Shown here piece after piece: positions 19,776 to 57,082 of a stretch of 64,000 bases of DNA. This stretch comes from Eledone cirrhosa (lineage: Eukaryota). The translations under genes and the position numbers were made by a program. Under the pieces are notes generated by a model. The model had not been told where the DNA came from. It was given only the letters and a program-made list of their open reading frames with translations, and made no database searches. How positions within the stretch are numbered: position 1 is the first letter of the stretch; the number at the start of each line of letters is the position of its first letter. The DNA is taken from assembly GCA_964016885.1 (NCBI GenBank), contig OZ024741.1:390290001-390354000 (forward strand), written 5' to 3'.

Positions 19776-20246
19776 TTGTTATACTTTGGGAGGGTCATGT
19801 TGCCACGCACCAGTTGCTTTCACTTCAATTTATTATAATAAATTTATAAATTTAGGAATTTATAAATTTCCGGTTGGTTGGTTGGTTCCACAACCAGATG
19901 GTTGTTTATATATTGTCAAAGTACATACAAAAACAAGATGGCGTAGGACAGAACAAAGGAGAGGCACAAAAAACAAAGAAAAGAATCCCCAGTCACTGAA
20001 GAGGTCACAGAATGTGTGACGAAAGAACTTTGACAATATATAAACAACCATCTGGTTGTGGAACCAACCAACCAACCAACCGGAAATTTATAAATTCCTA
20101 AATTTATAAATTTATTATAATAAATTGAAGTGAAAGCAACTGGTGCGTGTGTTTCTTATTGGCAACATGACCCTCCCAAAGTATAACAATATCGGTTTCA
20201 ACACACGTTTTCAGATAAAGAATCTTGCTAAACAAATTCAGAAACG

Positions 20247-21055: not shown

Positions 21056-21120
<65 letters not shown>

Positions 21121-21125
21121 GTATG

Positions 21126-21179
<54 letters not shown>

Positions 21180-21301
21180 AATATAGACATAGAATATTCG
21201 AAAATATTCTGTATGTTTATAATAAACATTTTGAAGACCTAATCGCTATAGAATAGAATACGTCACGTATTACAATTAGATTCTCGATAAAAGCAAGGGA
21301 A

Positions 21302-21344
21302 GTAATCTACGCGTTTCATTCTTATTAGAAATCTTCAGGACTAC
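21302..21344 (-). ncRNA. Minimal type I hammerhead ribozyme (310-bp unit, inverted copy)
   Basis: Reverse complement of 21774-21816. Confidence 0.88.
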
Positions 21345-21773
21345 ATATCCAGTGCTTTTATCGAGAATGACACAGCTAGAGACTTATAGAATACTTAGCT
21401 GTGTACATGAACTGGTTTGAAAGAGCGGTTGCCGGTCCGGCAGAAATTAGAAATTGGAATAAATGCTCTGAAATAGCGATATATATGTGAATATAGACAT
21501 AGAATATTCGAAAATATAATTCGAGAATCTAATTGTAATACGTGACGTATTCTATTCTATAGCGATTAGGTCTTCAAAATGTTTATTATAAACATACAGA
21601 ATATTTTCGAATATTCTATGTCTATATTCACATATATATCGCTATTTCAGAGCATTTATTCCAATTTCTAATTTCTGCCGGACCGGCAACCGCTCTTTCA
21701 AACCAGTTCATGTACACAGCTAAGTATTCTATAAGTCTCTAGCTGTGTCATTCTCGATAAAAGCACTGGATAT

Positions 21774-21816
21774 GTAGTCCTGAAGATTTCTAATAAGAAT
21801 GAAACGCGTAGATTAC
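21774..21816 (+). ncRNA. Minimal type I hammerhead ribozyme (310-bp unit)
   Basis: GTAGTC-CTGAAGA-t-TTCT aata AGAA-t-GAAA-CGCG-TA-GATTAC; palindromic ACGCGT; GUA site. Confidence 0.9.
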
Positions 21817-22083
21817 TTCCCTTGCTTTTATCGAGAATCTAATTGTAATACGTGACGTATTCTATTCTATAGCGATTAGGTCTTCAAAATGTTTATTATA
21901 AACATACAGAATATTTTCGAATATTCTATGTCTATATTCACATATATATCGCTATTTCAGAGCATTTATTCCAATTTCTAATTTCTGCCGGACCGGCAAC
22001 CGCTCTTTCAAACCAGTTCATGTACACAGCTAAGTATTCTATAAGTCTCTAGCTGTGTCATTCTCGATAAAAGCACTGGATAT

Positions 22084-22126
22084 GTAGTCCTGAAGATTTC
22101 TAATAAGAATGAAACGCGTAGATTAC
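22084..22126 (+). ncRNA. Minimal type I hammerhead ribozyme (310-bp unit)
   Basis: Identical to 21774-21816. Confidence 0.9.
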
Positions 22127-22279
22127 TTCCCTTGCTTTTATCGAGAATCTAATTGTAATACGTGACGTATTCTATTCTATAGCGATTAGGTCTTCAAAAT
22201 GTTTATTATAAACATACAGAATATTTTCGAATATTCTATGTCTATATTCACATATATATCGCTATTTCAGAGCATTTAT

Positions 22280-22325
<46 letters not shown>

Positions 22326-22502: not shown

Positions 22503-23985
22503 AAGTGTAGAGTGCAGTTAAATTGCATATTAAGAATAAGGAAATGGAGAAAAAAAAATGTTAGTTTTTACATACATATTTAGGGAGGAAAGTTCATATT
22601 TTTGTCAGTAATTTTTTTTCGTTCTCTGTTAGTGTTGACCAATAGTGGTAGTAGTGGGGGGAGAAGGGGGAGCAGACGAAGGAGAAGAACACGATGAAGA
22701 AGAAGAGGGAGGGACAGGGGATAGGTGTGGTAGTAAACCCAGGGCTATGGTAAGGAAGGAGAATACGGAGAAGTGGTGGGTGAAGCAGAAGTGGACGACA
22801 GGCCGTTGTAGTGGTGATAGTGTCACTGTTAATAATGATAAAGGGAGCTGTTCGTGGGATTGGCTTAAATGATTGAGTGACCTTAGAGTTGACTGAGGAA
22901 ATAATTGTTTCTAAAAATATCTATCTTGGTATTCCTGTTTGTAATGCTGGCATTCCTAAATTGACCTGCAGTGTGGGTGTTTCTAAGAGGTCTTCCTTAA
23001 CCCTCCAGCAATTACACCACTCCACATATACCACCATATTTTCTCAGTAAAGGTTCCATCCCACATAATTATCTCACACAATATTGAATCCATGAGACCC
23101 TAATATTACCCACCTCGAGAACACCACCCCAACATCAGCATGAGCAGCCGGCCACAGAACAGAAAGAGGTGAGAGAACTCCGACCGGACACGGCCGGTTC
23201 AAATGCCAAGAGGTTAATTTGTCCAGGGTGCTCATTTTAAAGTGTGCCAGCTGCAGTTTCCGAAGTAGATGCATTTAGAAGGGGTTCGTATTTAGCGATA
23301 AAATATGATTCCTTGCTAATGCGCTGGATGTCGGAGGCGTTGTCTTTAAATTTGTAGAATGGAAAAATTCTGAAATTGGGTTGTTCATTAGAGGCGCAGG
23401 TTGCAATGTGTTCACTCAGTGCTACTTGTCTATATACCTGTATTTTAATTTGGGGTCTATGAACGGTCATACGTTGACGAGGACTGCTTTTAGTCTCTCC
23501 TATGTAGTGCTCTCGACAGCCTGAGCAAGTCAACACATATATCAGGTTTTCTGATGTGCATGTGAAATTGCATTTCACTGTAAAGCGTTGCCCTTGTTTG
23601 AAGTGGAACTTCGATCCCTCTATTATGTTGATACATATACCACATATATAACAGTTGAGTCTTCCGCATTTTTTTTACTGTAGGATTCATTGTTAAGGTC
23701 AGCTGGACTTTGGCCTGTGTAAGGATGTTTTTCATTGATTTGGGTTGTCTTTTGCTCTATATAATGTTGTGCGTTTGAAGGATTTGATTCATTCTTAGGT
23801 CTCTTTTTAGTAAAGGTATGTTATGGCGATGGTGTCGAAAGCCTCATTGTTAAGGGGGTTGTGTGTGGAGATGTATGGTAAAGCTTTCAGTTTCGATTCA
23901 TATATATATATATTCGATTGATATATATATATATATCAGAATAACATCAAAACATTTATTTACAAAATAGGGATTTCCGCATTTA

Positions 23986-29367: not shown

Positions 29368-32300
29368 TTACAGATATATACTCAGAGTAGGCCCATTCAC
29401 TCGGGCCATTCTTGCTTCTCTCACCCATCTTTCAACAAAATGCTGGGAAGAGAGCACTTCCCTCTCTACTCTGATTTTCCTTTTCAAATGAAATTTGTAA
29501 AAGTCAATCAGAGCATCACCGAAGAGGTAAGTGCTCGTCTTCAGCCCTTTCAAACGTGTCCACCATACTATCTCTTTCGCCATGGCCACCAGACAGATAA
29601 AAACTGCCTGCCCTTCCCGGCTAAAGGAGGAGGGCGGGGCAATCCTCACGATGGACTCAGATGATAGCCGGATCCGTCCTAAACGCGACAGCAGGTGTTC
29701 GACATAAACCCACAAGTCAGCAATTTTCGGACACTGGACGAGTGCGTGCAGGACGGTTTCGTCGCCCTTCGCGCATCTCGGACATGCCCGGCTGACGGCA
29801 CCTCCATGCCTGTAGAGTTTATCCCGAACTGGCAAGGCTCCTCGGTAGCACTGCCAGGCCAGAGATTTCTGGAAGTTGTCCATAGGCCCTGGCCCGAAAG
29901 TTCTTCCGAAGAGATTGGCTAGTTGATTTTCGTCGACGCCTAGAGTTTCCCCAAGTACGTTGTCGCTCTTCCCCTCCACTAATCCTCTATAGAACGCCGA
30001 GGTGGAGTTTCCACCGATCACATTGCCCGATTGGTCGAGGGCTGTGAGCGCCTGAAGACATTCCAGTCTCCAGGTGCTCCCTCTCGGTCTTCGCTTGACC
30101 CAGGACTGCAGCTCCGTCAAGGAAACGAGCTGGGGAAATACGTGTCTAGCAAACGGCGACCACACCTTATCACCGTAGAGGAAGAGGTGGAGATGTCGTA
30201 GCCTGAGCGCGTGCCTGCGCATCATCAGCCACGGCATGCCCAGCCCTCCACGTAGCGGGTGTTGACAACAAATGGACCGCCTGACCATCGGAGCACGTCC
30301 CTTCCACAAAAAGCGAAAGAGCAAACGCTCCAGCGCAGTCAGGCGAGGCTTAGGACAAGGTACGACGGTCAGGCGGTAGCAGATTACAGACGCGATGTAC
30401 GCGTTAGCCACTTCCGCTCGACCTTTCAGGGATAGCTTCCTCTCCGCCCATTTCTGGGTGAGAGAAGCCACCCTGCTCGTCTCCTCGTCCCAGTTTTTGT
30501 CCGTCTGGAGGTCCGGACCGAACCAGACCCCTAGCAATTTAACCGGTCCGTCCGTCCAGCGTCCGACGACGCTGTTGGACGGCATGGACCTGCCTCTCCA
30601 GGTGCCGAGCTGCAGGCCCACTGACTTTTCCTGGTTGATCATTGCTCCTGTCACCGCTTCGTATTCTCTTAGTGTAATGCCGATCGCCTCGATGTGTTTG
30701 GCGTTCGACACCACTACGGTGACATCGTCCGCATATGCTGACACGGATCTTCCGCATCCTAGTTCGCGCGGGACTCCCCTCAACGTCTCCAGTTTGTGCA
30801 GTAATGGCTCGAGAGTCAATACGTACAATAGGGACGAGAGGGGACATCCTTGGCGGACCGAGCGCATGATGTTGAACGGTTCCGAAAGGTGACCGTTCAC
30901 TCTCACTACAGAGCAGATGTCGCTGTGCATGGCAGCGATCCAGCCTCTGAAGACGGGCCCAAAGCCAGCCGCCCTCAGGACTGCCGCTAGGTAACGATGG
31001 TCGACCCTATCGAAAGCTTTCGACTGATCTAAATTGATCAAGGACCCACCCGTGCCAGGTTCCTTAGCTACCCTCTCTATGATGTATCGCATGAGGTGGA
31101 GGTTGTCGTGGATGGATCTGTCGGGAATGGCGCATGTCTGCGCCTCTCCCACCAGACCACCAACGACAAGCGCCAACCTCTTTGCTAGCACCTTGGCCAA
31201 AATCTTGAACTCTGTGTTTAGCAGAGTTATGGGCCGGAAATTATCTATGTTATCCCCCTTGTTTGGATCCTTTCTCAGCAGTGCCACCGCTCCTCGGCTC
31301 ACAGAACTGGGAATTCTCCCGTTCTGTTGCCAGTTGCAGTAGACGTCCGCCAAGAGGCCTCCGAACAAGTCTGGCATCTGTACGTAAAGTTCATAGGGCA
31401 GACCATCCAAACCAGGCGATTTACCCATTGTGCAACTAGTCATTGCATCCCGTACTTCAGCTGATGTTATCGGCTTTTCGCAACACTCCGCCTCAGTGGC
31501 CGAAAGCCGCGGCAGTCCTTCGAGGTAGACACTAAAGTCCATCCCTCGATCCGGCCCGCCACTGCCCCCGAACAGTTGAGCGAAGTGTCGCTGAAAAGCT
31601 TCACACATTTGCCCGGGATCGAGTAGCATGCGCCCGTCGTGGTCCACCAAAGACCGGATCGTGGCTTTGTTGCCACGACGCGCCTCCGCCACTCGGGCCC
31701 ATTGAACGGTTTTCGTCCCCTCGTGTCTGAGAGCACGCACTCTTGCTCTGACAACGCAGCCTTCGTGCTTTGCATTGAAGAATTGGTCAAGGGCCAATTT
31801 CGCCGCAAGCACGTCGGTCGCAATGCCTTTGCTAAGCGCCTCGTCTAATTTTCTAACTAGTTCTCCCTCTGCTCTATTTTTCTCTATTGCTAAAGCCTTA
31901 CTAAACCTAATCGATTCTATTCTAATCGCTCTTTTCAGAGCAAACCACCACTTGTTGTTGACGATGGCCCCCGTCAACGCCCGCTTAACTAGTTCGCTAA
32001 TCCGGTCTCTGTAGGCCTTGCGCGCTGGTAAGGACGCGTTTAGCTTCCAGTAGCCGGGTCCTCGTCCATGAAGCCTATCTAAGTCAAGCACACAGATCAC
32101 GAATTTGTGGTCCGTGTAGCTGACTATCTTGAATTGTGGACAGCCTATGCTAGACCTATCTATTTCCCTACAAAATACTCTATCTAGATATGATCTAGAT
32201 GACCCTATGCGATTTGTCCAAGTCCACATTGGCACATTCGGGAAATCCAATCGGTACCTGTCAGACAGTTCAAAACGCCTGAGCAGGTTGGTGAGGCTCT

Positions 32301-32787
32301 TGCACCCTCCACCACTATCCGCTAATCCCACTCAGTCCCAGCGTGCATCTAAGATCCCGTTCCAGTCGCCCACTAACACTAAAGAGCGGGACGTTCCAAG
32401 AAAAGTCTCCAGACGCCGGAAGAAATCAGGCCGCCCTGCTCCTGTCGGGGCATAGACGGCCACTAGCCTGAAAGCTTGCCCGTCTCCGCTGGTCACGTCC
32501 AGCACCACCAGCTTACCCTCTGGGTCCAGGAAGATGGCCCGTATGGCGAGATCCAAACCTCTCCGAAAAAGCACAGCAACTCCTCCCCCCGACCCAGGAC
32601 GGCTGGGAGATGCGCACACATCGTAGCCGCCGAAGATCGGTGCGAAGGCCCGTGCTTCGGAGATTCTGGTCTCGCTGATGGCCACTACATCTATGTTTAG
32701 TGACCTGAGGTCGTTGAGCAGGTGACCCTGCTTCCATGACGACCCCAAGCCACGCGCATTTATGCTGCCTATTCTGAGTGAGGTCAT
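29368..32787 (-). pseudogene. ORF2 (APE-RT-CCHC) split by a TGT>TGA stop at 32332-32334
   Basis: 151-aa and 987-aa ORFs are in frame and collinear with the 1139-aa ORF of copy 2; QGCPLS, AYADD, CPRC...HALVQC. Confidence 0.93.
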
Positions 32788-32822
32788 GTTTAAAATAGAG
32801 TGGAAAAGATGGGAAAGACCAC

Positions 32823-34921
32823 TTACCGTACTTTTGGTAGAGGAGGAATGGTTTTTACATCCCTTTTCACTTGATCGTCTGGTGAAGGGACCGTTGAATC
32901 GTCCCTTCGGCTGGTCGTCGGCTCTTCTAAGAGAATGTCTGAATATACTCTTCGATTGATGGTTCCTCCTAGGTCCCTGAAATCACCAACTGCGTTGGGG
33001 AATTTCGTTTTAATGTTTGTGTATTGTTTCTGTGCTATTTTTAGCAGTCTTATGTTAGTTGGCGTTTTGATTGGTGCTGGTATTATGTAGTCCTGTTGTG
33101 AAATGTCTGTGTGTTCAATTATGTAAGTCATTAGTTTCTTGTTGTGTGTATTTATTGCCGTGCATTTGTTTTTCTGGGGGTGGGGTGTGGTTCTGCTATT
33201 TTCTTGTCGTTGTTGCTGGGTGTGTGTTTTGTTGTTGTGTTTGCGATGTTGGTGCTTGTGGTGGTGGTGTTGAAGGTGTTGTTGGCGGTGGGGTTGTCGC
33301 CGGTGGTGATGGTGGTGCTAGTGTGGGTGGTGATGGTGTTGGTGGTGTTGCTGCTGTGGGTCTCTTTGCAGTAGACTTTACCCTTTTCTCATTTCTTTCC
33401 TCCCTTTTCAAAGGCGACGATGCGCTGCTTCTGCGTTTGTGCCTTCTTACGACCTTTTGCCATCCCTCTCCCACCTCACACTCCATGTCTGATTCTGTGA
33501 GGTCGGGGAGGGGTACCAGCTCCACTCTTTCACTTGTTGTTGTTGGTGATGTTTGCACTGGAGTCTCTGTTGCAGCTGCATTTGGTATTGCTGTTGTTGT
33601 TGTTAATATTTCCACTGCTGCTGCTGTTTTTGATTTCCGTGGCGTGGGTATGGGTGCCACGGACCTATCGTTCCTGGTTGCCGCTTGTCCTGTTGCTGGT
33701 AGCCGTGGAGCCGGATTCGGAAGGAGGGGGGTTTTCTCCTTTCTCAGGGTCTTCTCGTTGCAGAAGGCCCTGAGGTGAGTCTTCGATCCACAGCGAAAGC
33801 CTTTCGGGCGTTTGCCCTCAACACTTATGGGCAGTTGAGTGCCGTTATCGAAGTCTATCACATCCGGGATAGCTTCGATGCACTCCTGGTTGGTTTGGAT
33901 TAGCATCTCAATGGAGGTGCCGACCCAATATTCTCTTACTTTTTTCTGTACTTGCAGTACAGTTGTTTTGTCCTCGATTCCGACGAGGACAGACGCGGCC
34001 AGCCAAGAAGGGGCCATTCCGGGGGAGACGTGGGTCAGTTTGACCCTCACAATTTTTTGCCCGCAGTAGGAGGGCACCAACACCATTTCCTCGCCTTAGG
34101 GTCACTACGGATTGGGCCTCTGCCTCCTGGGGTGTGGCAAAAAGTACGTCTACGGTGGCATATTTTTTGCCTCGGGTGATGTGCGTTTTCCGCTGCCACA
34201 CAGACCCCAAGGCTTTTTGTATTTGGGCCTCTGTGGCTCTTTCCACCCTACGGGATTTTGTACTTACTGTACGGTACGTGACCGTACAGTGCTGTTGGGT
34301 TTCGAAAAAATTTTCCGCTGCCTTGCAGATTGCTCGGTGTCCATTCTTTGTCACCATCTTCTTCGCTTCCTCTAATTCCTCATTTGTTATGAGGATTGTT
34401 TCCAAGTTTTTCGCAATACCTGCAAATGAGATTGGTTTTTCTTTGCTGCTGTTATTGTTGTTGTCGTCAGAGCTGCTGTTACTTTTGTTGTTGCTGCAGG
34501 TACTACGACTACTGCCTTCGCCGCTGTTGCTGTGGTTGTTGTTGGTGTTGCTGCTGCTAATGCTGTTGTTGTTTATGCTGCTGGTGATGCTGTTGCGGCT
34601 GCTACTGTTGTTTTCATTGTCACTGTTGCTGTTGTTATTACGGCTGCTACTGCTATTATTCCTGACGTCAGACGAATGAACTGGGTTTTCGTATTTCCCG
34701 CACACCTGTTTCGTCGCTGTCGTCGTCGTCGTGGAGAAACCTTGCATGCTTTGCACGAGACTTTTCTTTTCTTTCGTCACTTGCGAAAGAGAAGGGAGGG
34801 AGAGAGACACATTTAAAGAAGGGAGGGAGAGAGACAATCTTCTCTCTGCTGTAGTGACGATTGAGGAAGAAGAAGACGGAATGAGTGGGAGTGACCTATG
34901 CAAATTCTTTTTCGTAGCCAT
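32823..34921 (-). pseudogene. ORF1 of copy 1, frameshifted, with degenerate zinc knuckle and Pro/Thr/Ser/Asn-rich regions
   Basis: Three consecutive ORF pieces homologous to copy 2 ORF1; VEGKRPKGFRCGSKTHLRAFC. Confidence 0.8.
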
Positions 34922-35136
34922 GTTGTTTTTTTGTTTAAAATAAATATTGGGTACAAACCCCCAATAAGCAGTTATTTAACCCCGAAGGGCCAAATAACGG
35001 ACAGAAAGACCCCTCTCACGAGGAGGAGGGTGTTTTTGTCTACAAGTTGGTCTAAGTTTTAAACAATTTACAATTGTTAAAGCGTTCAAAATTTACAGTA
35101 CCTTACAGAGCCGAGCCTCCGTCAACCATAGCATTC

Positions 35137-35179
<43 letters not shown>

Positions 35180-35421
35180 TTTTCTTTATTAACCACAAGG
35201 GTTCACATAAAGTAGACATTAAGGACAGTACAGGACAATACAGGACGGTACAAATGGGCATTTCTGCGTGTAAAAAAACAGAGGTTGAAATAAAATAACA
35301 AAGAAAAATTCCCCAATAGGGGGGAGACTTCCAAGGGACATTTGTGGAGAAAGCCCATTAAAAGACCACAGTGGCCCTGACCACCAGGGCAAGTGCCCTC
35401 TCCCAGTTTTCCACCTTTAAT

Positions 35422-38400
35422 TTACAGACACATACTCAGAGAAGGCCCATTCATTCGGGCCATACTTGCTTCTCTCACCCATCTTTCAACAAAATGCTGG
35501 GAAGAGAGCACTTCCCTCTCTACCCTGATTTTCCTTTTCAAATAAAATTTGAAAAAGTTAATCAGGGCATCACCGAAGAGGTAAGTGCTCGTCTTCAGCC
35601 CTTTCAAACGTGTCCACCACACTATCTCTTTCGCCATGGCCACCAGACAGATAAAAACTGCCTGCCCTTCCAGGCTAAAGGAAGGGGGCGGGGCAATCCT
35701 CACGATGGACTCAGCTGATAGCTGGATCCGTCCTACACGTGACAGCAGGTGTTCGACATAAACCCACAAGTCAGCAATGCTCGGACACTGGACGAGTGCG
35801 TGCAGGACGGTTTCGTCGCCCTGCGCGCATCTCGGACATGCCCGGCTGACGGCACCTCCATGCCTGTAGAGTTTATCCCGAACTGGCAAAGCTCCTCGGT
35901 AGCACTGCCAGGCCAGGGATTTCTGGAAGTTGTCCATAGGCCCCGGCCCCAAAGTCCTTCCGAAGAGATTGGCTAATTGATTTTCGTCGACGCTTAGAGT
36001 TTCTCCAAGTACGTCGTCGCTCTTCCCCTCCACTAATCCCCTATAGAACGCCAAGGTGGAGTTTCCACCGATCACATTGCCCGATTGGTCGAGTGCTGTG
36101 AGCGCCTGAAGACATTCCAGTCTCCAAGCGCTCCCTCTCGGTCTTCGCTCGACCCAGGACTGCAGCTCCGTCAAGGAGACGAACTGGGGAAAAACGTGTC
36201 TTGCAAACGGCGACCACACCTGATCACCGTCGAGGAAGAGGTGGAGATGTCGTAGCCTGAGCGCGTGCCTGCGCATCATCAGCCACGGCATGCCCAGCCC
36301 TCCACGTAGCGGGTGTTGACAGCAGATGGACCGCCTGACCATCGGAGCGCGTCCCTTCCACAAGAAGCGAAAGAGCAAACGCTCCAGCGCAGTCAGGCGG
36401 GGCTTAGGACAAGGTACGACGGTCAGGCGGTAGTAGATGACGGATGCGATGTACGCATTCGCCACCTCCGCTCGACCTTTCAGGGATAGCTTCCTCTCGG
36501 CCCATTTCTGGGTGAGAGAAGCCACCCTGCTCGTCGCCTCGTCCCAGTTTTTGTCCGTCTGGAGGTCTGGACCGAACCAGACCCCTAGCAATTTAACCGG
36601 TCCGTCCGTCCAGCGCCCGACGACGCTGTTGGACGGCATGGACCTGCCTCTCCAGGTGCCGAGCTGCAGGCCCACTGACTTTTCCTGGTTGATCATTGCT
36701 CCTGTCACCGCTTCGTATTCTCTTAGTGTGGTGCCGATCGCCTCGATGTGTTTGGCGTTCGACACCACTACGGTGACATCGTCGGCATATGCTGACACGG
36801 ATCTTCCGCATCCTAGTTCGCGCGGGACCCCCCTCAACGTCTCCAGTTTGTGCAGTAATGGCTCGAGAGTCAATACGTACAATAGGGACGAGAGGTGACA
36901 TCCTTGGCGGACCGAGCGCATGATGTTGAACGGTTCCGAAAGGTGACCGTTCACTCTCACTACAGAGCAGATGTCGCTGTGCATGGCAGCGATCCAGCCT
37001 CTGAAGACGGGCCCAAAGCCAGCCGCCCTCAGGACTGCCGTTAGGTAACGATGGTCGACCCTATCGAAGGCTTTCGACTGATCTAAATTGATCAAAGACC
37101 CACCCGTGCCAGGTTCCCTAGCTACCCTCTCTACGATGTATCGCATGAGGTGGAGGTTGTCGTGGATGGATCTGTCGGGAATGGCGCATGTCTCTGCCTC
37201 TCCCACCAGACCACCAACGACAAGCGCCAACCTCTTTGCTAGCACCTTGGCCAAAATCTTGAACTCTGTGTTTAGCAGAGTTATGGGCCTAAAATTATCT
37301 ATGTTATCCCCCTTGTTCGGATCCTTTCTCAGCAGCGCCACCGCTCCTCGGCTCACAGAGCTGGGAATTCTCCCATTCTGTTGCCAGTTGCAGTAGACGT
37401 CCGCCAAGAGGCCTCCGAACAAGTTTGGCATTTGTACGTAAAGTTCATAGGGCAGACCATCCAAACCAGGCGATTTACCCATTGTGCAACTAGTCATTGC
37501 ATCCCGTACTTCAGCTGATGTTATCGGCTTTTCGCAACACTCCGCCTCAGTGGCCGAAAGCCGCGGCAGTCCGTCGAGGTAGACACTAAAGTCCATCCCT
37601 CGATCCGGCCCGCCACTGCCCCCGAACAGTTGAGCGAAGTGTCGCTGAAAAGCTTCACACATTTGCCCGGGATCGAGTAGCATGCGCCCGTCGTGGTCCA
37701 CCAAAGACCGGATCGTGGCTTTGTTGCCACGACGCGCCTCCGCCACTCGGGCCCATTGAACGGCTTTCGTCCCCTCGTGTCTGAGAGCACGCACCCTACC
37801 TCTGACAACGCAGCCTTCGTGCTTTGCATTGAAGAATTGGTCAAGGGCCAATTTCGCCGCAATTACGTGGGTCGCGATGCCTTTGCTAAGCGCCTCATCT
37901 AATTTTCTAACTAATTCTCCCTCTGCTCTATTTTTCTCTATTGCTAAAGTCTTACTAAACCTAATGGACTCTATTCTAATTGCTCTTTTCAGAGCAAACC
38001 ACCACTTGTTGTTGACGATGGTCCCCGTCAACGCCCGCTTAACTAGTTCGCTAATCCGGTCTCTGTAGGCCTTGCGCGCTGGTAAGGACGCGTTTAGCTT
38101 CCAGTAGCCGGGTCCTCGTCTATGAAGCCTATCTAAGTCAAGCACACAGATCACGAATTTGTGGTCCGTGTAGCTGACTATCTTGAATTGTGGACAGCCT
38201 ATGCTAGACCTATCTATTTCCCTACAAAATACTCTATCTAGATGTGATCTGGATGACCCTATGCGATTTGTCCAAGTCCACATTGGTACATTCGGGAAAT
38301 CCATTCGGTACCTGTCAGACAGTTCAAAACGTCTGAGCAGGTTGGTGAGACTCTTGCACCCTCCTTCCCTATCCACTAATCCCACACAATCCCAGCGTGC

Positions 38401-38841
38401 ATCTAAGATCCCGTTCCAGTCGCTCACTAACACTAAAGAGCGGGACGTTCCAAGAAAGGTCTCCAGACGCCGGAAGAAATCAGGCCGCCCTGCTCCTGTC
38501 GGGGCATAGACGGCCACTAACCTGAAAGCTTGCCCGTCTCCGCTGGTCACGTCCAGCACCACCAACTTACCTTCTGGGTCCAGGAAGATGGCCCGTATGG
38601 CAAGATCCAAACCACTCCGAAAAAGCACAGCAACTCCTCCCCCCGATCCCGGACGGCTGGGAGATGCGTACACATCGTAGCCGCCGAAGATCGGTGCGAA
38701 AGCCTGTGCTTCGGAGATTCTGGTCTCGCTGATGGCCACTACATCTATGTTTAGTGACCTGAGGTCGTTGAGCAGGTGGCCCTGCTTCCATGACGACCCC
38801 AAGCCACGCGCATTTATGCTGCCTATTCTGAGTGAGGTCAT
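35422..38841 (-). CDS. ORF2p: AP endonuclease, reverse transcriptase and C-terminal CCHC (1139 aa)
   Basis: SINARGL, ISET, VYAP, SHLDR, TDH, GYWKLN, KSPGLDGLP, FRPITLLN, DQSKAFDRV, AYADD, KLLGV, CPRC-x7-H-x4-C; GDWN>SDWN and QGCP>QGCH substitutions relative to copy 1. Confidence 0.95.
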   Translation of the reverse strand: MTSLRIGSINARGLGSSWKQGHLLNDLRSLNIDVVAISETRISEAQAFAPIFGGYDVYASPSRPGSGGGVAVLFRSGLDLAIRAIFLDPEGKLVVLDVTSGDGQAFRLVAVYAPTGAGRPDFFRRLETFLGTSRSLVLVSDWNGILDARWDCVGLVDREGGCKSLTNLLRRFELSDRYRMDFPNVPMWTWTNRIGSSRSHLDRVFCREIDRSSIGCPQFKIVSYTDHKFVICVLDLDRLHRRGPGYWKLNASLPARKAYRDRISELVKRALTGTIVNNKWWFALKRAIRIESIRFSKTLAIEKNRAEGELVRKLDEALSKGIATHVIAAKLALDQFFNAKHEGCVVRGRVRALRHEGTKAVQWARVAEARRGNKATIRSLVDHDGRMLLDPGQMCEAFQRHFAQLFGGSGGPDRGMDFSVYLDGLPRLSATEAECCEKPITSAEVRDAMTSCTMGKSPGLDGLPYELYVQMPNLFGGLLADVYCNWQQNGRIPSSVSRGAVALLRKDPNKGDNIDNFRPITLLNTEFKILAKVLAKRLALVVGGLVGEAETCAIPDRSIHDNLHLMRYIVERVAREPGTGGSLINLDQSKAFDRVDHRYLTAVLRAAGFGPVFRGWIAAMHSDICSVVRVNGHLSEPFNIMRSVRQGCHLSSLLYVLTLEPLLHKLETLRGVPRELGCGRSVSAYADDVTVVVSNAKHIEAIGTTLREYEAVTGAMINQEKSVGLQLGTWRGRSMPSNSVVGRWTDGPVKLLGVWFGPDLQTDKNWDEATSRVASLTQKWAERKLSLKGRAEVANAYIASVIYYRLTVVPCPKPRLTALERLLFRFLWKGRAPMVRRSICCQHPLRGGLGMPWLMMRRHALRLRHLHLFLDGDQVWSPFARHVFPQFVSLTELQSWVERRPRGSAWRLECLQALTALDQSGNVIGGNSTLAFYRGLVEGKSDDVLGETLSVDENQLANLFGRTLGPGPMDNFQKSLAWQCYRGALPVRDKLYRHGGAVSRACPRCAQGDETVLHALVQCPSIADLWVYVEHLLSRVGRIQLSAESIVRIAPPPSFSLEGQAVFICLVAMAKEIVWWTRLKGLKTSTYLFGDALINFFKFYLKRKIRVEREVLSSQHFVERWVREASMARMNGPSLSMCL

Positions 38842-38875
38842 GTTGAAAAGGAGTGGAAAAGATGGGAAAGACCAC

Positions 38876-40872
38876 TTACCTTACTTCTCGTAGGGGAAGG
38901 ACGGCTTTTCCATCCTTTTCACTGCTTGTGGCCTCCTCAGGAAGGATGTCCTTATAAATCCTCCTGGAGAGTGCTTGTCGGAAGTCTCCGATGTCTTTGG
39001 GGAATTTTTGTTTTAGTGTCATGTACGTTTTCTGTGTGATGCGAGTGATTTGTATGTGTGGAGGTGTTGTGAATTTTGGGGTTGTTGTGTAGTCTTTTTC
39101 TGTGATGCTGGTGTTGTGTTGGATGTAGTGTAATAATTGCTTGTTGTTCAAATTTAATGCTGTGTAGTGTGTATCGTTTTGGTTGTTTTGTTTTGTTTGC
39201 GTTTGTTGTGGGTTTGTTTCTGTTTCGCATTTTGGTGACTTTTGTGGTGTAGGTGATGGTGGTGCTGGGGATAATGATGGTGATGGTGTTGGTGTTTGGG
39301 TTGATGGGGTTGGTGATGCTGGTGTGGATGGTGGCATATCTGTCCTAACTTTTTTGTTTCTTAGTTTATTTGTTTCTCTCTGTATTTTGTTTTTGGAGGG
39401 GGAAGGAAGAGAATTTTTTCTTTTTTGGTTTCTTTTTTTTTTTCCGGATATCGTTTCCCACTCCTCGTCGTCACAATCTGTCTCCAGTTGTGATAGGCCG
39501 GGGAGTGGAAAATCCTCCACAGCCGTTAGTTTTGGTTGTGGTGTGGTGGATGGTGTAGGCGCTGGTGCTAGTTCTGAAGCGTTGGGTGGTGGTGGTGTTG
39601 GTTTTGCTGGTGGTGGTAGTGGTGTTGGTTTTGCTACTGTTGCTGGGGTTGTTGCTGTTATAGTTGCTTCTGTTGTTGCTGCTACAGTTGTTGCTGCCAT
39701 CGCTGCTACTGGTGGTGTTGATGGTTGTGTCACTGGGGTGGGTAGGAGAGGTGGCCTCAACCTTTTAGCCTGAGGGCAGAAAGCCCTTAGGTGGGTTCCT
39801 TCACCACAAACGACACACCTAGGTCTTCTGCCCTCGACAATTACCGTGAGGTGGCTGCCGTCAGTGAGGTCTATTACCTCTGGGATCTCCTCAATGCTTT
39901 TTTGGTCCGCTTGGATCAGGAGCTCCATCCCAGATCCGGACCAGTTTTCCTGCTTTTCTTTTGCTACTGCTATTATTTTCGTGTTGGCTTCGATGCCGGC
40001 GAGGACAGCCGCTATTAGCCAGGGAATTTCGATGGCCGGTGGAACGTGGGTCACCCTGATCTTTACGAGTCTCTGGCCACAATAGCTTGGGACGAGTGTG
40101 AGGTCGTCACTTTTTAATGGGGCCATGGAGTGTTCTCTAGCCTCCTCTGGTGTTTCAAAGAACACATCCACGGTTCCATACTTTTGCCCACGTCTGATGT
40201 GGGTTTTTCTTGCCCACACATGTCCCAAAGCTTTTTGGATTTGGGACTCGGATGCCCGTTCCACTCGGCGCGATTTTACATTTATTGTTCTATACGACAC
40301 GGTGCACAGGCGCCGATGCTCCATTTTATTAGGTGGGGGGGGGGGGGGCTGACCCTGTACCCATCTTTCTTTACCATTTGTTTGGCATTTTCTAAATCTT
40401 CTTGAGTTACCGTGAACGCTTCGAATTGTTTTGCTACGATGGCGAAACTGAGGGTCGGTTTTATAATGTCATTGTTGTTGTTGTTGCTATCGTTATTTGT
40501 GTTAATCTTAATTTTTGTTTCAGTTGTGGTGGTGGTGACGTAATTCGTCTTTGGTGCGGAAGAGTCCATTTTGCTTGATTTCATTTCGACATCACGAGTT
40601 AATTTATTTTTTTCTTCTTTTGTTTCTGTTGTCGCGGTGGTGGTGGGGGTGGTGTTGTCGCGGTGGTGGTGGTGGTGGAGGCTTTAACACCTGCAGTCAT
40701 TGGTAATGGCGGGAAATGAATGTCTGCCTGAGACAAATTTAAAATATTGCTACTGCTTATATTTTTTTTTTGTGTTGGCAAACGTAGTAACATTTACAAT
40801 GGTGGTGTCGGTGTGAGGTGTTATTTTGTGAGGAAGGCTTTCAGCTGCTTCGTGCAGAGGGGAATTAGCCAT
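38876..40872 (-). pseudogene. ORF1 of copy 2: 482-aa open C-terminal part with CCHC knuckle; N-terminus frameshifted at homopolymers
   Basis: CVVCGEGTHLRAFC; upstream pieces 40282-40584 and 40599-40793; probable ATG near 40872. Confidence 0.8.
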
Positions 40873-51850: not shown

Positions 51851-52206
51851 CAGGTGAAATGTATGCTAAAGTGATATCGGTATAAATACAGAGTGTGTAA
51901 CTGGGACAGGAAGTCGATATCACCCCGGATGAAACTGGATATGTATTCACATACCCAGTTTCATCCGGGATGATATCGACTTCCTGTCCCATCTTCCCAA
52001 AACCACGGAAACGAATTCACTTCTACTTAGTTTTGATGTGGTAAGCCTTTACACCAACATTACACATGATTTAGGAATAAAGGCGGTTAAATACTGGGTA
52101 GAAAAACATAGAGAAGTGATTCCCATTAGACGCAGTTAAACTTATTCTGGAAAACAACACTTTCTTCTTCAATGGAAAGAATTACATCCAAATTAGAGGC
52201 ACAGCG

Positions 52207-53382
52207 ATGGGAACGAAGTTTGCTCCCGTTTACGCGAACTCTGTAATGGGATACTTAGAACAACAACTCTACCAAGAAATAGAGGAAAAATATAGTACTG
52301 ACTTTAGAAAGTACATTGAAAAATCTTGGAAGAGATACCTTGACGACTGTTTCATCATCTGGACAGAATCTCTAGATACTCTGGATGAGTTCAATATCCT
52401 CCTGAATAACCTACACCCATCTCTCCAATTCACAAAAGAGATGAGTAGGACCAAATTACCATTCCTAGATATAATGATAATCAAAAACGACACCACCATT
52501 ACCACGGATATATATTATAAACACACAGACACCCATCAATATCTGAATTTTAAGTCGTGCCATCCACCTCATACAAAACGCAACATCCCATACTGCTTAG
52601 CCAGAAGAATTTGTACCATTGTAGAAGATACGAATACCAGGTACAAACGCCTAACAGAACTAAGAGAATTTTTGCTCAAACAAAAATACCCATCTCTACT
52701 TATAGAAAATGGCATACAGCGGGCTATAAAAATACCTATACAACAACTTAGGACAACCCAAGGAAGAAGAAACCAAGAACTGGTCATATCATTTATAATG
52801 ACACACAACCCATGTCACCAGAATATCTTCAACACTGCCAAAGCAAACCTACCGATCATTGCTCAAAGTAATGAATTAAAAGGCTTAATCACAGATCGAT
52901 CTTTGACTCTTAGTAAAAGACAGCCGAAAAATTTGAAGCAATTACTAACAAAAGCAAAGTTTGACCTTAACAACAAAGACCAATCATTCACTGTATCTAA
53001 ATGCAATGATAGTCGATGTGGCACATGTCAATCCATATACGCCGGTCAATATATGAAAACAAAAACTGGAAAAATATTCCCAAATGCAAATGTGAACTGC
53101 AAAAGCAGAAATCTAATTTACTGCATTAAATGCCCTAATTGTGAAGAACTATATGTCGGTCAAACTGGAAATGCACTATCGGAAGGTGCGCGGGTACACC
53201 GACAGCAAATCAGAGACCCAAATGTCCGTCAGATACCCCTAAGTAATCATCTAGCAACATGTGGTCAGGAAATATTTATAATATTCCCATTCTACAAATT
53301 ACACAGCCCAAGTGAAATCAAGAGAAAAATCAAAGAAAAGAATTTTATTGATAAATTCAAACCCAAGCTAAATGAACATTAA
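52207..53382 (+). pseudogene. Penelope RT (C-terminal half) plus GIY-YIG endonuclease, 391 aa open
   Basis: MGTKFAP.YAN, RYLDD, LPFLD, YYKHTD, C..RC.TC, NLIYCIKCPNCEELYVGQT. Confidence 0.92.
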
Positions 53383-54339: not shown

Positions 54340-54377
54340 GCCAACAATCTTTCGTCCTATTAAGGACTCATCAGGGC
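54340..54377 (-). ncRNA. Minimal hammerhead with imperfect stem III
   Basis: GCC-CTGATGA-GTCCT taat AGGAC-GAAA-GATTG-TT-GGC. Confidence 0.75.
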
Positions 54378-54690
54378 AATTAAAGCTATAAGAAGCACTA
54401 TCGGCCAATACAAGCCAAAAACTCATAAGAATATGGAGTGTACATACATTAAAGCATAGGAAAATTATCGAATAAAAATTATCAAGTAAAAATTGCTAAG
54501 GAAGTGAATAACATTTTGAACCATATTACAAATATAGTACAATGCAAAAACTAAAGCTAAACAAAGGTGGTGATATAGAGCGGGAATTATTGTACTATAT
54601 ATAATATAATATAATATAATATAATATAATATAATATAATATAATATAATATAATTGATAATGATAATAATAATAATATTAAAAGGCCCA

Positions 54691-54735
<45 letters not shown>

Positions 54736-57044
54736 TATACATATATATCAATACACATTTCTCAAGGATACAGAGATTACAGTGGGTCTCAAGGATACAG
54801 AGATTACGAAATTTAGTATGTGTTGATAGGTTATTAGAGCGTGCTACTATTCGCCAATTAAGGCTATATGGTATATTAGCCCCCTTAAGATCCCAGATAT
54901 GGTGTGCTAAAGAAGTAGAATTCTTAAACTTAACATGTTTAAAATTAGAGATATGAGAATTAAACCTAGTCTTAAAAGTGTTAGATGTTGAGCCTATATA
55001 TGTGCTATTAGAGGAATTAGTTTTAACTACACAAGCATAAACGATGTTCTTAGAGAGGCAGTTACCGTTTAAAGTGCAGTTAACACTCACTCTACAGTTA
55101 CACTTCCGGGTGCTATTGATCGGCTGAAGTAGTGATGCATCACACGTAGGGTTACTATGAGATAAGGTCTGCTCAGGTGGTAAGGCATTTATGGATCTAT
55201 TCAGACTAGTAGTACGTAGAGAGGAGTATCCATCCCTAATTTTCCCATTGTTAGTGCTAGCTAAATGAGAACTAATATTAGGGGTGGTAGAGAATGAAAG
55301 TTTAATTACATTTTTATTAAAAATACCATGGTATTTATTAGTAGGAGGGAAATTTTTCTCTAAGATAGAAAAGAAAGACCTAGGGATGTTAGTTAATACT
55401 TTCTGATTATATGGCGGGTTAAAATAAGTATTTAGTCTCCTTCTATTTTTATCCTTACCAACTCTACCGTTATCTAATATCCCATTATTATCTATAATTT
55501 TCTCTAGGGAAACCTTACTTAATAGAAAGTCTGAGATATTCTCTTTGTGCCCCCACGCCATTTCAAATTCTTACTTTTATTATAAACCTAAAGGTTCTGG
55601 TAGTGTAAATTGTATCCATTAGCTGCTATATTCCCTTATCTTTTTAGTTTAGGTTCATTTTGTTTACCACCATCATTATTATTATTGGTTTTTAACAGCT
55701 TTTCAATCTAGCTTTCATAGTCTTTTGGCTACCATACCATATCTATCTTCTTAAATATTATATTTTCACTTATGAGTTTATATCTGATTATATATTTTAT
55801 TTTATTTTATTTTATTTTATTTTATTTGGATTCTTCTTTAGATAATTAACCCCCTCTCCCTCGCCCACACACCCACACACACACTTGTCATTCGCCCCTT
55901 CAATTATACTATAATTATATTCATTTCCCTTTTATGCTCCTTTCTATTGTATAATACAGTATATTGATTATGATTTTATGCTCCTTCGTATCCTCATACA
56001 TTTCTTTTTTCTGTCCCCATTGGCCTACCATAATTCTATTTAAAGTCCGTTTATTAGATAACGTTATTCAACTGATAGTAGAATATTTCATTCTTTTCTG
56101 GATATTTTTATTGAGATATCTTAAACTTTGGAGATTTTGATTACTTAAACCATAGCTAATTTTGTATTGACTTATTATGTATTTTAAATACTTTCAATTT
56201 TAATTAATTTAATAGGGTTTTCTAGTCATTTATCTACGTTTGTTTCCTAAATTTTTACTTAACCGCATGTGACACCTAAGTAAATACTTTTGTTTTTGTT
56301 TTTCGATTTCCGGTTGATTTTATTTATATATTTATACTACCGTGCGTAGTTTTCTTTAAACGGTAACTGCCTCTCTAAGAACATCGTTTATGCTTGTGTA
56401 GTTAAAACTAATTCCTCTAATAGCACATATATAGGCTCAACATCTAACACTTTTAAGACTAGGTTTAATTCTCATATCTCTAATTTTAAACATGTTAAGT
56501 TTAAGAATTCTACTTCTTTAGCACACCATATCTGGGATCTTAAGGGGGCTAATATACCATATAGCCTTAATTGGCGAATAGTAGCACGCTCTAATAACCT
56601 ATCAACACATACTAAATTTCGTAATCTCTGTATCCTTGAGACCCACTGTAATCTCTGTATCCTTGAGAAATGTGTATTGATATATATGTATATATGTGTA
56701 CATATATATATATATGTATATTGGGCCTTTTAATATTATTATTATTATCATTATCAATTATATTATATTATATTATATTATATTATATTATATTATATTA
56801 TATTATATTATATTATATTATATATAGTACAATAATTCCCGCTCTATATCACCACCTTTGTTTATCTTTAGTTTTTGCATTGTACTATATTTGTAATATG
56901 GTTCAAAATGTTATTCACTTCCTTAGCAATTTTTACTTGATAATTTTTACTCGATAATTTTCCTATGCTTTAATGTATCTACACTCCATATTCTTCTGAG
57001 TTTTTGGCTTGTATTGGCCGATAGTGCTTCTTATAGCTTTAATT

Positions 57045-57082
57045 GCCCTGATGAGTCCTTAATAGGACGAAAGATTGTTGGC
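57045..57082 (+). ncRNA. Minimal hammerhead with imperfect stem III
   Basis: Same motif as 54340-54377, in the other arm. Confidence 0.75.

Follow-up and report, generated by a model that had tools for sequence, protein, structure and literature searches.

How a short non-coding repeat is copied and inserted into a genome depends on which enzyme moves it and on which RNA serves as the template. Both questions are raised by a locus in a 64,000-nucleotide stretch of the Eledone cirrhosa genome (contig OZ024741.1, positions 390,290,001 to 390,354,000; hereafter, the window), where a 310-bp unit with a predicted hammerhead ribozyme is repeated in tandem. A previous reading made from the sequence alone had proposed a retrozyme generated by rolling-circle reverse transcription of a circular RNA. 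Our analysis of the locus and of its relatives in the genome points to a young insertion of a non-LTR retrozyme, the template of which was probably an RNA circle of a single unit, copied by a Penelope-like reverse transcriptase (RT)/GIY-YIG endonuclease working from both ends of a (TA)n cut.

Anatomy of the locus

The insertion and its flanks occupy positions 21058-22325 of the window. Unit numbering (1-310) starts at 21811, the base following the predicted cut.

21058..21176, no strand: left (TA)n target microsatellite, of which the final 8 bases match unit 132-139 too
21169..21517, minus strand: inverted arm, 1.13 units, 349 bp, 100% unit identity; it runs from unit 139 on the outside (short end) to unit 101 on the inside
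21280..21368, minus strand: type I hammerhead and 16-bp closing stem of the inverted arm; predicted minus-strand cut after 21308
21518..21520, no strand: inner junction between the arms, 3 extra bases
21521..22285, plus strand: direct arm, 2.47 identical 310-bp units, running from unit 21 to unit 165 (tail end)
21750..21838, plus strand: type I hammerhead 1 and 16-bp closing stem; predicted cut after 21810
21811..22120, plus strand: predicted 310-nt monomer, cut site to cut site (unit 1-310)
22060..22148, plus strand: type I hammerhead 2; predicted cut after 22120
22251..22285, plus strand: 35-bp tail, unit 131-165, beyond the usual short end and terminating one arm only
22284..22325, no strand: right (TA)n target microsatellite

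The exact 310-bp tandem described by the sequence-only reading was borne out for the direct arm, which has 2.47 copies at period 310 with 0 mismatches. The span then given to it, 21175..22285, holds for 21521-22285 only; the stretch 21169-21517 runs the other way, as an inverted arm whose minus strand carries a third hammerhead. As had also been stated, the unit is ORF-free (the longest stop-free stretch of the circularised unit is 59 aa on the plus and 46 aa on the minus strand), the 16-bp inverted repeat and both small hairpins (GAATATT ttcg AATATTC; TGCCGG a CCGGCA) are present in the sequence, and the predicted cleavage positions fall after 21810 and 22120. The inverted arm had been overlooked, and so had the two fixed ends; both features are clues to the machinery that mobilises the element. 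Both outer ends of the insertion sit within (TA)n, and because both flanks are (TA)n a target-site duplication is not readable at this locus.

A dispersed and very young family

The unit proved to be dispersed through the genome in some 15,000 copies. An exact internal 28-mer occurs 15,050 times and the exact junction of the unit 165 tail with TA 1,041 times genome-wide, with 0 occurrences of the controls in either case; in a DNA search of the 3.0-Gb genome, 40 scored candidates yielded 349 matches. Since 12 of 18 tail ends lie at unit 165 in the set of insertions not chosen by end, the 1,041 junctions correspond to an estimated family size of about 1,500 insertions. The family is very young.

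We read 82 insertions. Twenty-one had been picked by identity to the window unit, and the other 61 were taken from contig C1, from regions surrounding 60 of the first tail junctions (165 end); both sets therefore carry a bias towards the feature used for their selection. Five insertions truncated by an N gap or by the edge of the fetched region (L063, L092, L031, L061 and L087) were excluded from the end counts. The window haplotype is missing from 52 C1 insertions, and it therefore represents a minor subfamily.

Two arms with fixed ends form a Penelope footprint

Two back-to-back arms were found in 74/82 insertions, the remainder being 5 complete single-armed and 3 cut insertions. In every complete two-armed insertion (72/72) one arm ends at unit ~130-139 and its counterpart at 165-172, with 130/139 as the commonest positions of the short end and 165 as that of the tail end. 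Apparent short ends below unit 127 were an effect of variants beside the end. The combination of one short and one tail end was seen in 18/18 insertions of the set not chosen by end, and (TA)n was present on both flanks in 73/77 complete insertions. Arm length has a median of 3.2 units and a maximum of at least 27, the lengths of paired arms correlate (rho 0.33, p 0.004), and the gap between arms ranges from -16 to 75 bp. No ORF, of RT plus GIY-YIG or otherwise, was enclosed in any of the 82 insertions.

It has been reported that Penelope insertions carry an inverted 5'-truncated copy, a tail of 30-40 bp at one end and a (TA)n target (PMC8557442, PMC3846280). We found the inverted copy of this type in 74/82 insertions and the tail at one end only in 72/72 complete two-armed insertions; the two-armed layout with fixed ends is thus the Penelope footprint of inverted copy plus tail. 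The anole Penelope protein has been described to cut and extend both strands in vitro, with two internal RT start sites bounding the tail (PMC11167929). Taken together, these observations identify the element, almost certainly, as a non-autonomous Penelope-type retrozyme.

Among more than 10,000 GIY-YIG candidates, 120 Penelope-like loci were compared with the unit, and none of these showed a homologous autonomous Penelope end. The loci comprised 30 of a family with a 775-aa frame, 30 relatives of a GIY-YIG fragment at 23237-23674 (including a family with a 784-aa frame), the 30 top PF01541 loci, and 10 + 20 longer regions. Profile matches within these loci turned out to be separate retrozyme insertions, none of them a pseudo-LTR, and two sequence patterns designed to catch a partner (31 matches each) returned older retrozyme families only. 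The GIY-YIG fragment at 23237-23674, which lies 950 bp right of the insertion, was rejected as a partner; it belongs to an old, unrelated element.

Two autonomous Penelope-like families in this genome also have two arms, two ends and a TA target. The first, a young family with a 775-aa open frame (window 52120-53382, plus strand; L217-L225), has 704 exact ends and occurs as full-length 4.2-kb tandems of up to four copies in addition to two-armed insertions. Its ends lie 123 and 177 nt past the hammerhead, compared to 130 and 165 in the 310-bp unit, and it may also be copied from a circle. The second young family (784-aa frame; L219, L222 and L223) likewise has two arms in (TA)n, and its tail is 39 nt long.

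The predicted hammerhead and the fold of the unit

The sequence-only reading had described one intact hammerhead per unit. All conserved core positions are indeed present, and the prediction combines a full core with a helix I of 6 bp, closed by a bulge plus the 16-bp stem; "intact" does not extend to helix II, predicted as 4 bp over a U-U mismatch, or to helix III, predicted as 2 bp with a palindromic loop, and on paper this hammerhead is weak. The minimum-energy fold is without helices II and III as drawn (-24.6 vs -31.3 kcal/mol). On the window sequence no Rfam family reached its gathering score, the best being HH9 (17 bits, E 0.57) in 2/3 copies; Rfam miRNA matches were rejected, as they arise from the inverted arms and TA runs. 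Folding of the 310-nt monomer gave a z of -4.9, linear and circular (0/100 shuffles as low), and the minus strand of the unit folds at least as well as the plus strand. The same helix II U-U and 2-bp helix III have been described in axolotl HHR_Amex2, an active retrozyme whose dimer cleaves better (PMC7229834). For Xenopus retrozymes 8/9 are reported without in vitro cleavage (10.64898/2026.07.22.740005), and Penelope insertion in vitro did not require cleavage (PMC11167929).

Sequence variation among insertions also bears on the fold. Inherited substitutions in the stem or core keep or create pairing in 7/7 cases, compared to 4/25 for singletons (p 1e-4). Across sister families 16/30 base pairs have changed on both sides (0/500 shuffles; slid controls 3-6), in an alignment of 18 rows that holds 17 units of two older sister families (60-67% identity over the whole unit) and amounts to about three related clades with few events, tested with a shuffle that ignores relatedness and a structure read from the window sequence. 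The core pair C3-G8 is replaced by U3-A8 in 10/18 rows of the hammerhead-region alignment, and in 13/52 C1 insertions an A-U pair replaces the U-U at the base of helix II. The U3-A8 core is known from Penelope hammerheads (PMC4209133). That inherited variants appear to respect the predicted ribozyme fold provides indirect evidence suggestive of selection on the RNA fold.

Unit-level variants point to a one-unit template

Arrays are uniform inside and different among loci; the 72 insertions that span at least 2.2 units fall into 24 haplotypes. The 750 units contain 105 singleton variants (0.14 per unit), and 15 rows hold variants that are intermediate, being neither singletons nor present in every unit. 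Unmirrored single-unit variants number 54 and mirrored cases 2 (L083 and L101), when ~29 mirrored variants would be expected from linear multimers (Poisson p 9e-11) on the assumption that the singleton load of parent arrays equals that of the arrays read. Singletons are possibly later mutations or assembly errors, and the variant test rests on the accuracy of the assembly. In 10 insertions, all from the C1 set, a variant private to the sample was found in every covered unit, in both arms in 9 of them and in up to 24 units (L106, 24/24; L064, 22/22); private here refers to 82 of ~1,500 insertions, and unsampled loci may share these variants. If the template were one unit drawn from a parent array with this singleton load, the expected number of insertions with a new variant in every unit would be ~7 for the 52 unselected insertions and ~10 for all 72.

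Inner arm ends are distributed uniformly around the unit (p 0.37), with 4/140 near the cut site versus 5 expected, and 743 passes through the predicted cut site show almost no change. The uniform inner ends and clean passes argue against run-off or jumping on cleaved linear RNA. In both arms of L101 the haplotype switches at the identical unit, a mirrored singleton occurs in L083, and a mosaic structure was seen in three further insertions (L074, L041 and L087); these five cases indicate that some insertions use multimers or template switches. Nevertheless, the usual template is probably a one-unit RNA circle. Rolling-circle reverse transcription is thus supported by the pattern of variants across loci; the non-integer copy number from which it had originally been proposed is uninformative, as any Penelope-type insertion gives such numbers.

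The same element and enzyme could instead have used an uncleaved linear multimer transcribed from the parent array, the ribozyme being incidental. Unprocessed RNA is reported as the dominant substrate of the anole Penelope protein (PMC11167929), the mirrored heterogeneity of L101 and L083 fits such a template, and uniform inner ends and clean junctions are also compatible with it. We consider it unlikely given the deficit of mirrored variants (2 vs ~29; Poisson p 9e-11), the one-unit bottleneck and re-expansion that each of the 24 internally uniform haplotypes would need, and the apparent respect of inherited variants for the ribozyme fold. A one-unit bottleneck would also arise if the RT jumped repeatedly from the 5' end to the 3' end of a cleaved linear monomer, or if a population of circles were replicated or edited at the RNA level, and mosaics such as L074 and L041 do suggest template switches. 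Jumping, however, sits poorly with arm starts that are not enriched at the cut site (4/140 vs 5) and with 743 passes that are almost scar-free, and we give this pair of explanations slightly less credence still.

Amplification of short insertions at the DNA level, with satellite-like homogenisation by unequal crossing-over or gene conversion (cf. 10.64898/2026.07.22.740005), might explain the few long arrays with variants at spaced units (L064 with period 7, L063, L087). It is very improbable as a general account: apart from 15 intermediate rows, variants are either singletons (105) or present in every unit, private ones extend across both inverted arms, and the lengths of the arms correlate (rho 0.33, p 0.004). 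Finally, we attach next to no weight to a plain pseudo-LTR of an autonomous Penelope element or an artefact of assembly. The reading covers 82 of ~1,500 insertions, and no read or contig was found to span the window locus; yet the absence of an enclosed ORF in 82/82 insertions, the dispersed copies (15,050 units and 1,041 junctions, with 0 control matches), the resolved unit-level variants and a very high unit depth in an independent read assembly (run X1) largely refute both a plain pseudo-LTR and an assembly duplication. The dispersed ORF-free copies and the depth in run X1 support the retrozyme reading originally put forward.

Related repeats and other sequencing runs

Two older sister retrozyme families (L039 8179-9270, L109 4752-5554, L141-L185) have units of 289-322 bp with 60-67% unit identity; one has the U3-A8 core, and conservation is best around the two ends. 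At L046 (4651-4740) the TA run immediately beside an older sister-family end was itself the landing site of a young insertion. In the window, a second hammerhead repeat with a 470-bp period (660-1500; cores at 827 and 1297, 278/280 bases identical) lies between TA runs and likewise has a U-U in helix II. A small head-to-head palindromic element with a minimal hammerhead-like motif occurs at 1530-2040, 6497 and 19780-20190, and 54374-57048 contains a divergent GIY-YIG element that is two-armed and bears a hammerhead at each outer end. Two adjacent LINE-type RT frames of 987 and 1152 aa, the second with RVT_1, zf-RVT and endonuclease, are found at 29368-38880.

At least half of the unit's words (query 21521-22222) were present in 20 runs from 17 studies with 18 organism labels. 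A single 340-nt contig was obtained from each of runs X4 and X5; its length of 310+30 corresponds to a closed cycle, and its 4 differences are all found as variants in this genome too. The depth is 365 in X4 and 26 in X5, vs ~2e5 in X1. In raw DNA run X24, whose organism label is that of X4, not a single read fell on the unit. Either contamination or transfer could account for near-identical circles of a single haplotype under the labels of other organisms.

Discussion

By its sequence features the element is a non-LTR retrozyme, a known kind of element, non-coding and with a predicted hammerhead in each unit; its testable features were found. Like the metazoan non-LTR retrozymes described (PMC7229834, PMC7761336, 10.64898/2026.07.22.740005), it has a non-coding tandem unit in the range of 150-450 bp with low GC, one type I hammerhead per unit and a self-paired monomer, it lacks LTR, PBS and PPT, and Penelope elements are present in the same genome. 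Metazoan non-LTR retrozymes are described in these accounts as head-to-tail only, whereas here we see two inverted arms, two fixed ends and a TA target; the same accounts state that conserved motifs indicating the partner are lacking. Circles and cleavage have been demonstrated for them, whereas the 310-bp family is known from genomic sequence. A Penelope origin of retrozymes has been argued by Li, Clavereau and Pollet in 2026 (10.64898/2026.07.22.740005), a preprint that leans to local satellite-like amplification, and conversion of a circle into tandem cDNA by Penelope-like machinery has been put forward as a hypothesis (Discussion of PMC7229834, Cervera and de la Pena 2020; review PMC7761336). 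Inverted arms with fixed ends were not found described for retrozymes in this literature, the words "inverted" and "opposite" being absent from the main text of PMC7229834. Judged from literature listings, there appears to be no earlier variant-pattern test of retrozyme templates; a supplementary model figure of PMC7229834 may bear on the question.

The family shares with EN+ Penelope-like elements (Penelope/Poseidon, Neptune and Naiad) the inverted 5'-truncated copy, the 30-40 bp tail, partial tandems and the (TA)n target, as well as a hammerhead upstream of the RT start sites and the U3-A8 core variant (PMC8557442, PMC3846280, PMC11167929, PMC4209133). Unlike the elements described there, it has no ORF, its unit measures 310 bp, its arms reach 27 or more units, and no homologous autonomous end was found. 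Chlamys elements such as MRC1 are likewise non-autonomous, Penelope-type and inserted as head-to-tail multicopies, but canonical hammerheads are mostly missing from them and their 3' end resembles that of the partner (PMC8557442).

We propose that the tandem array would be transcribed and that its hammerheads would cut once per unit, probably as dimers, after which the monomer would be ligated into a circle. Monomer circles have been demonstrated for other retrozymes (PMC7229834; PMC7761336). The flanks suggest that a Penelope-like protein would then cut both strands within (TA)n, and each DNA end would prime at one of the two observed end positions, unit ~130-139, whose AU run can base-pair with the target, or unit 165. 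Both cDNAs would make up to 27 or more turns of the circle before ending at random, and would then be joined via short microhomology or filler, giving the observed <<< >>> layout. Such double rolling-circle synthesis by a telomerase-related Penelope RT, with two cDNAs primed 35 nt apart on one 310-nt circle, up to tens of turns, a single selected RNA per cycle and a circle that could also move between species, is in our view somewhat favoured as a whole.

These observations suggest that the Penelope tail and inverted copy are two priming events on opposite target strands. In L1 twin priming, both target strands prime on one RNA, and the inverted and direct parts are joined by microhomology. 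In the 310-bp family, by comparison, both starts are fixed, internal and ~35 nt apart, and both arms can exceed the length of one template. Because the family has ~1,500 insertions that are very young, start at fixed priming sites and differ at the level of single units, circle-templated copying and satellite-like amplification can be distinguished on the basis of one assembly, and the sample of 82 insertions favours a circle. The 310-nt unit is in addition a minimal substrate for in vitro work. The circles in runs labelled as other organisms could mean that the retrozyme circle also moves between species.
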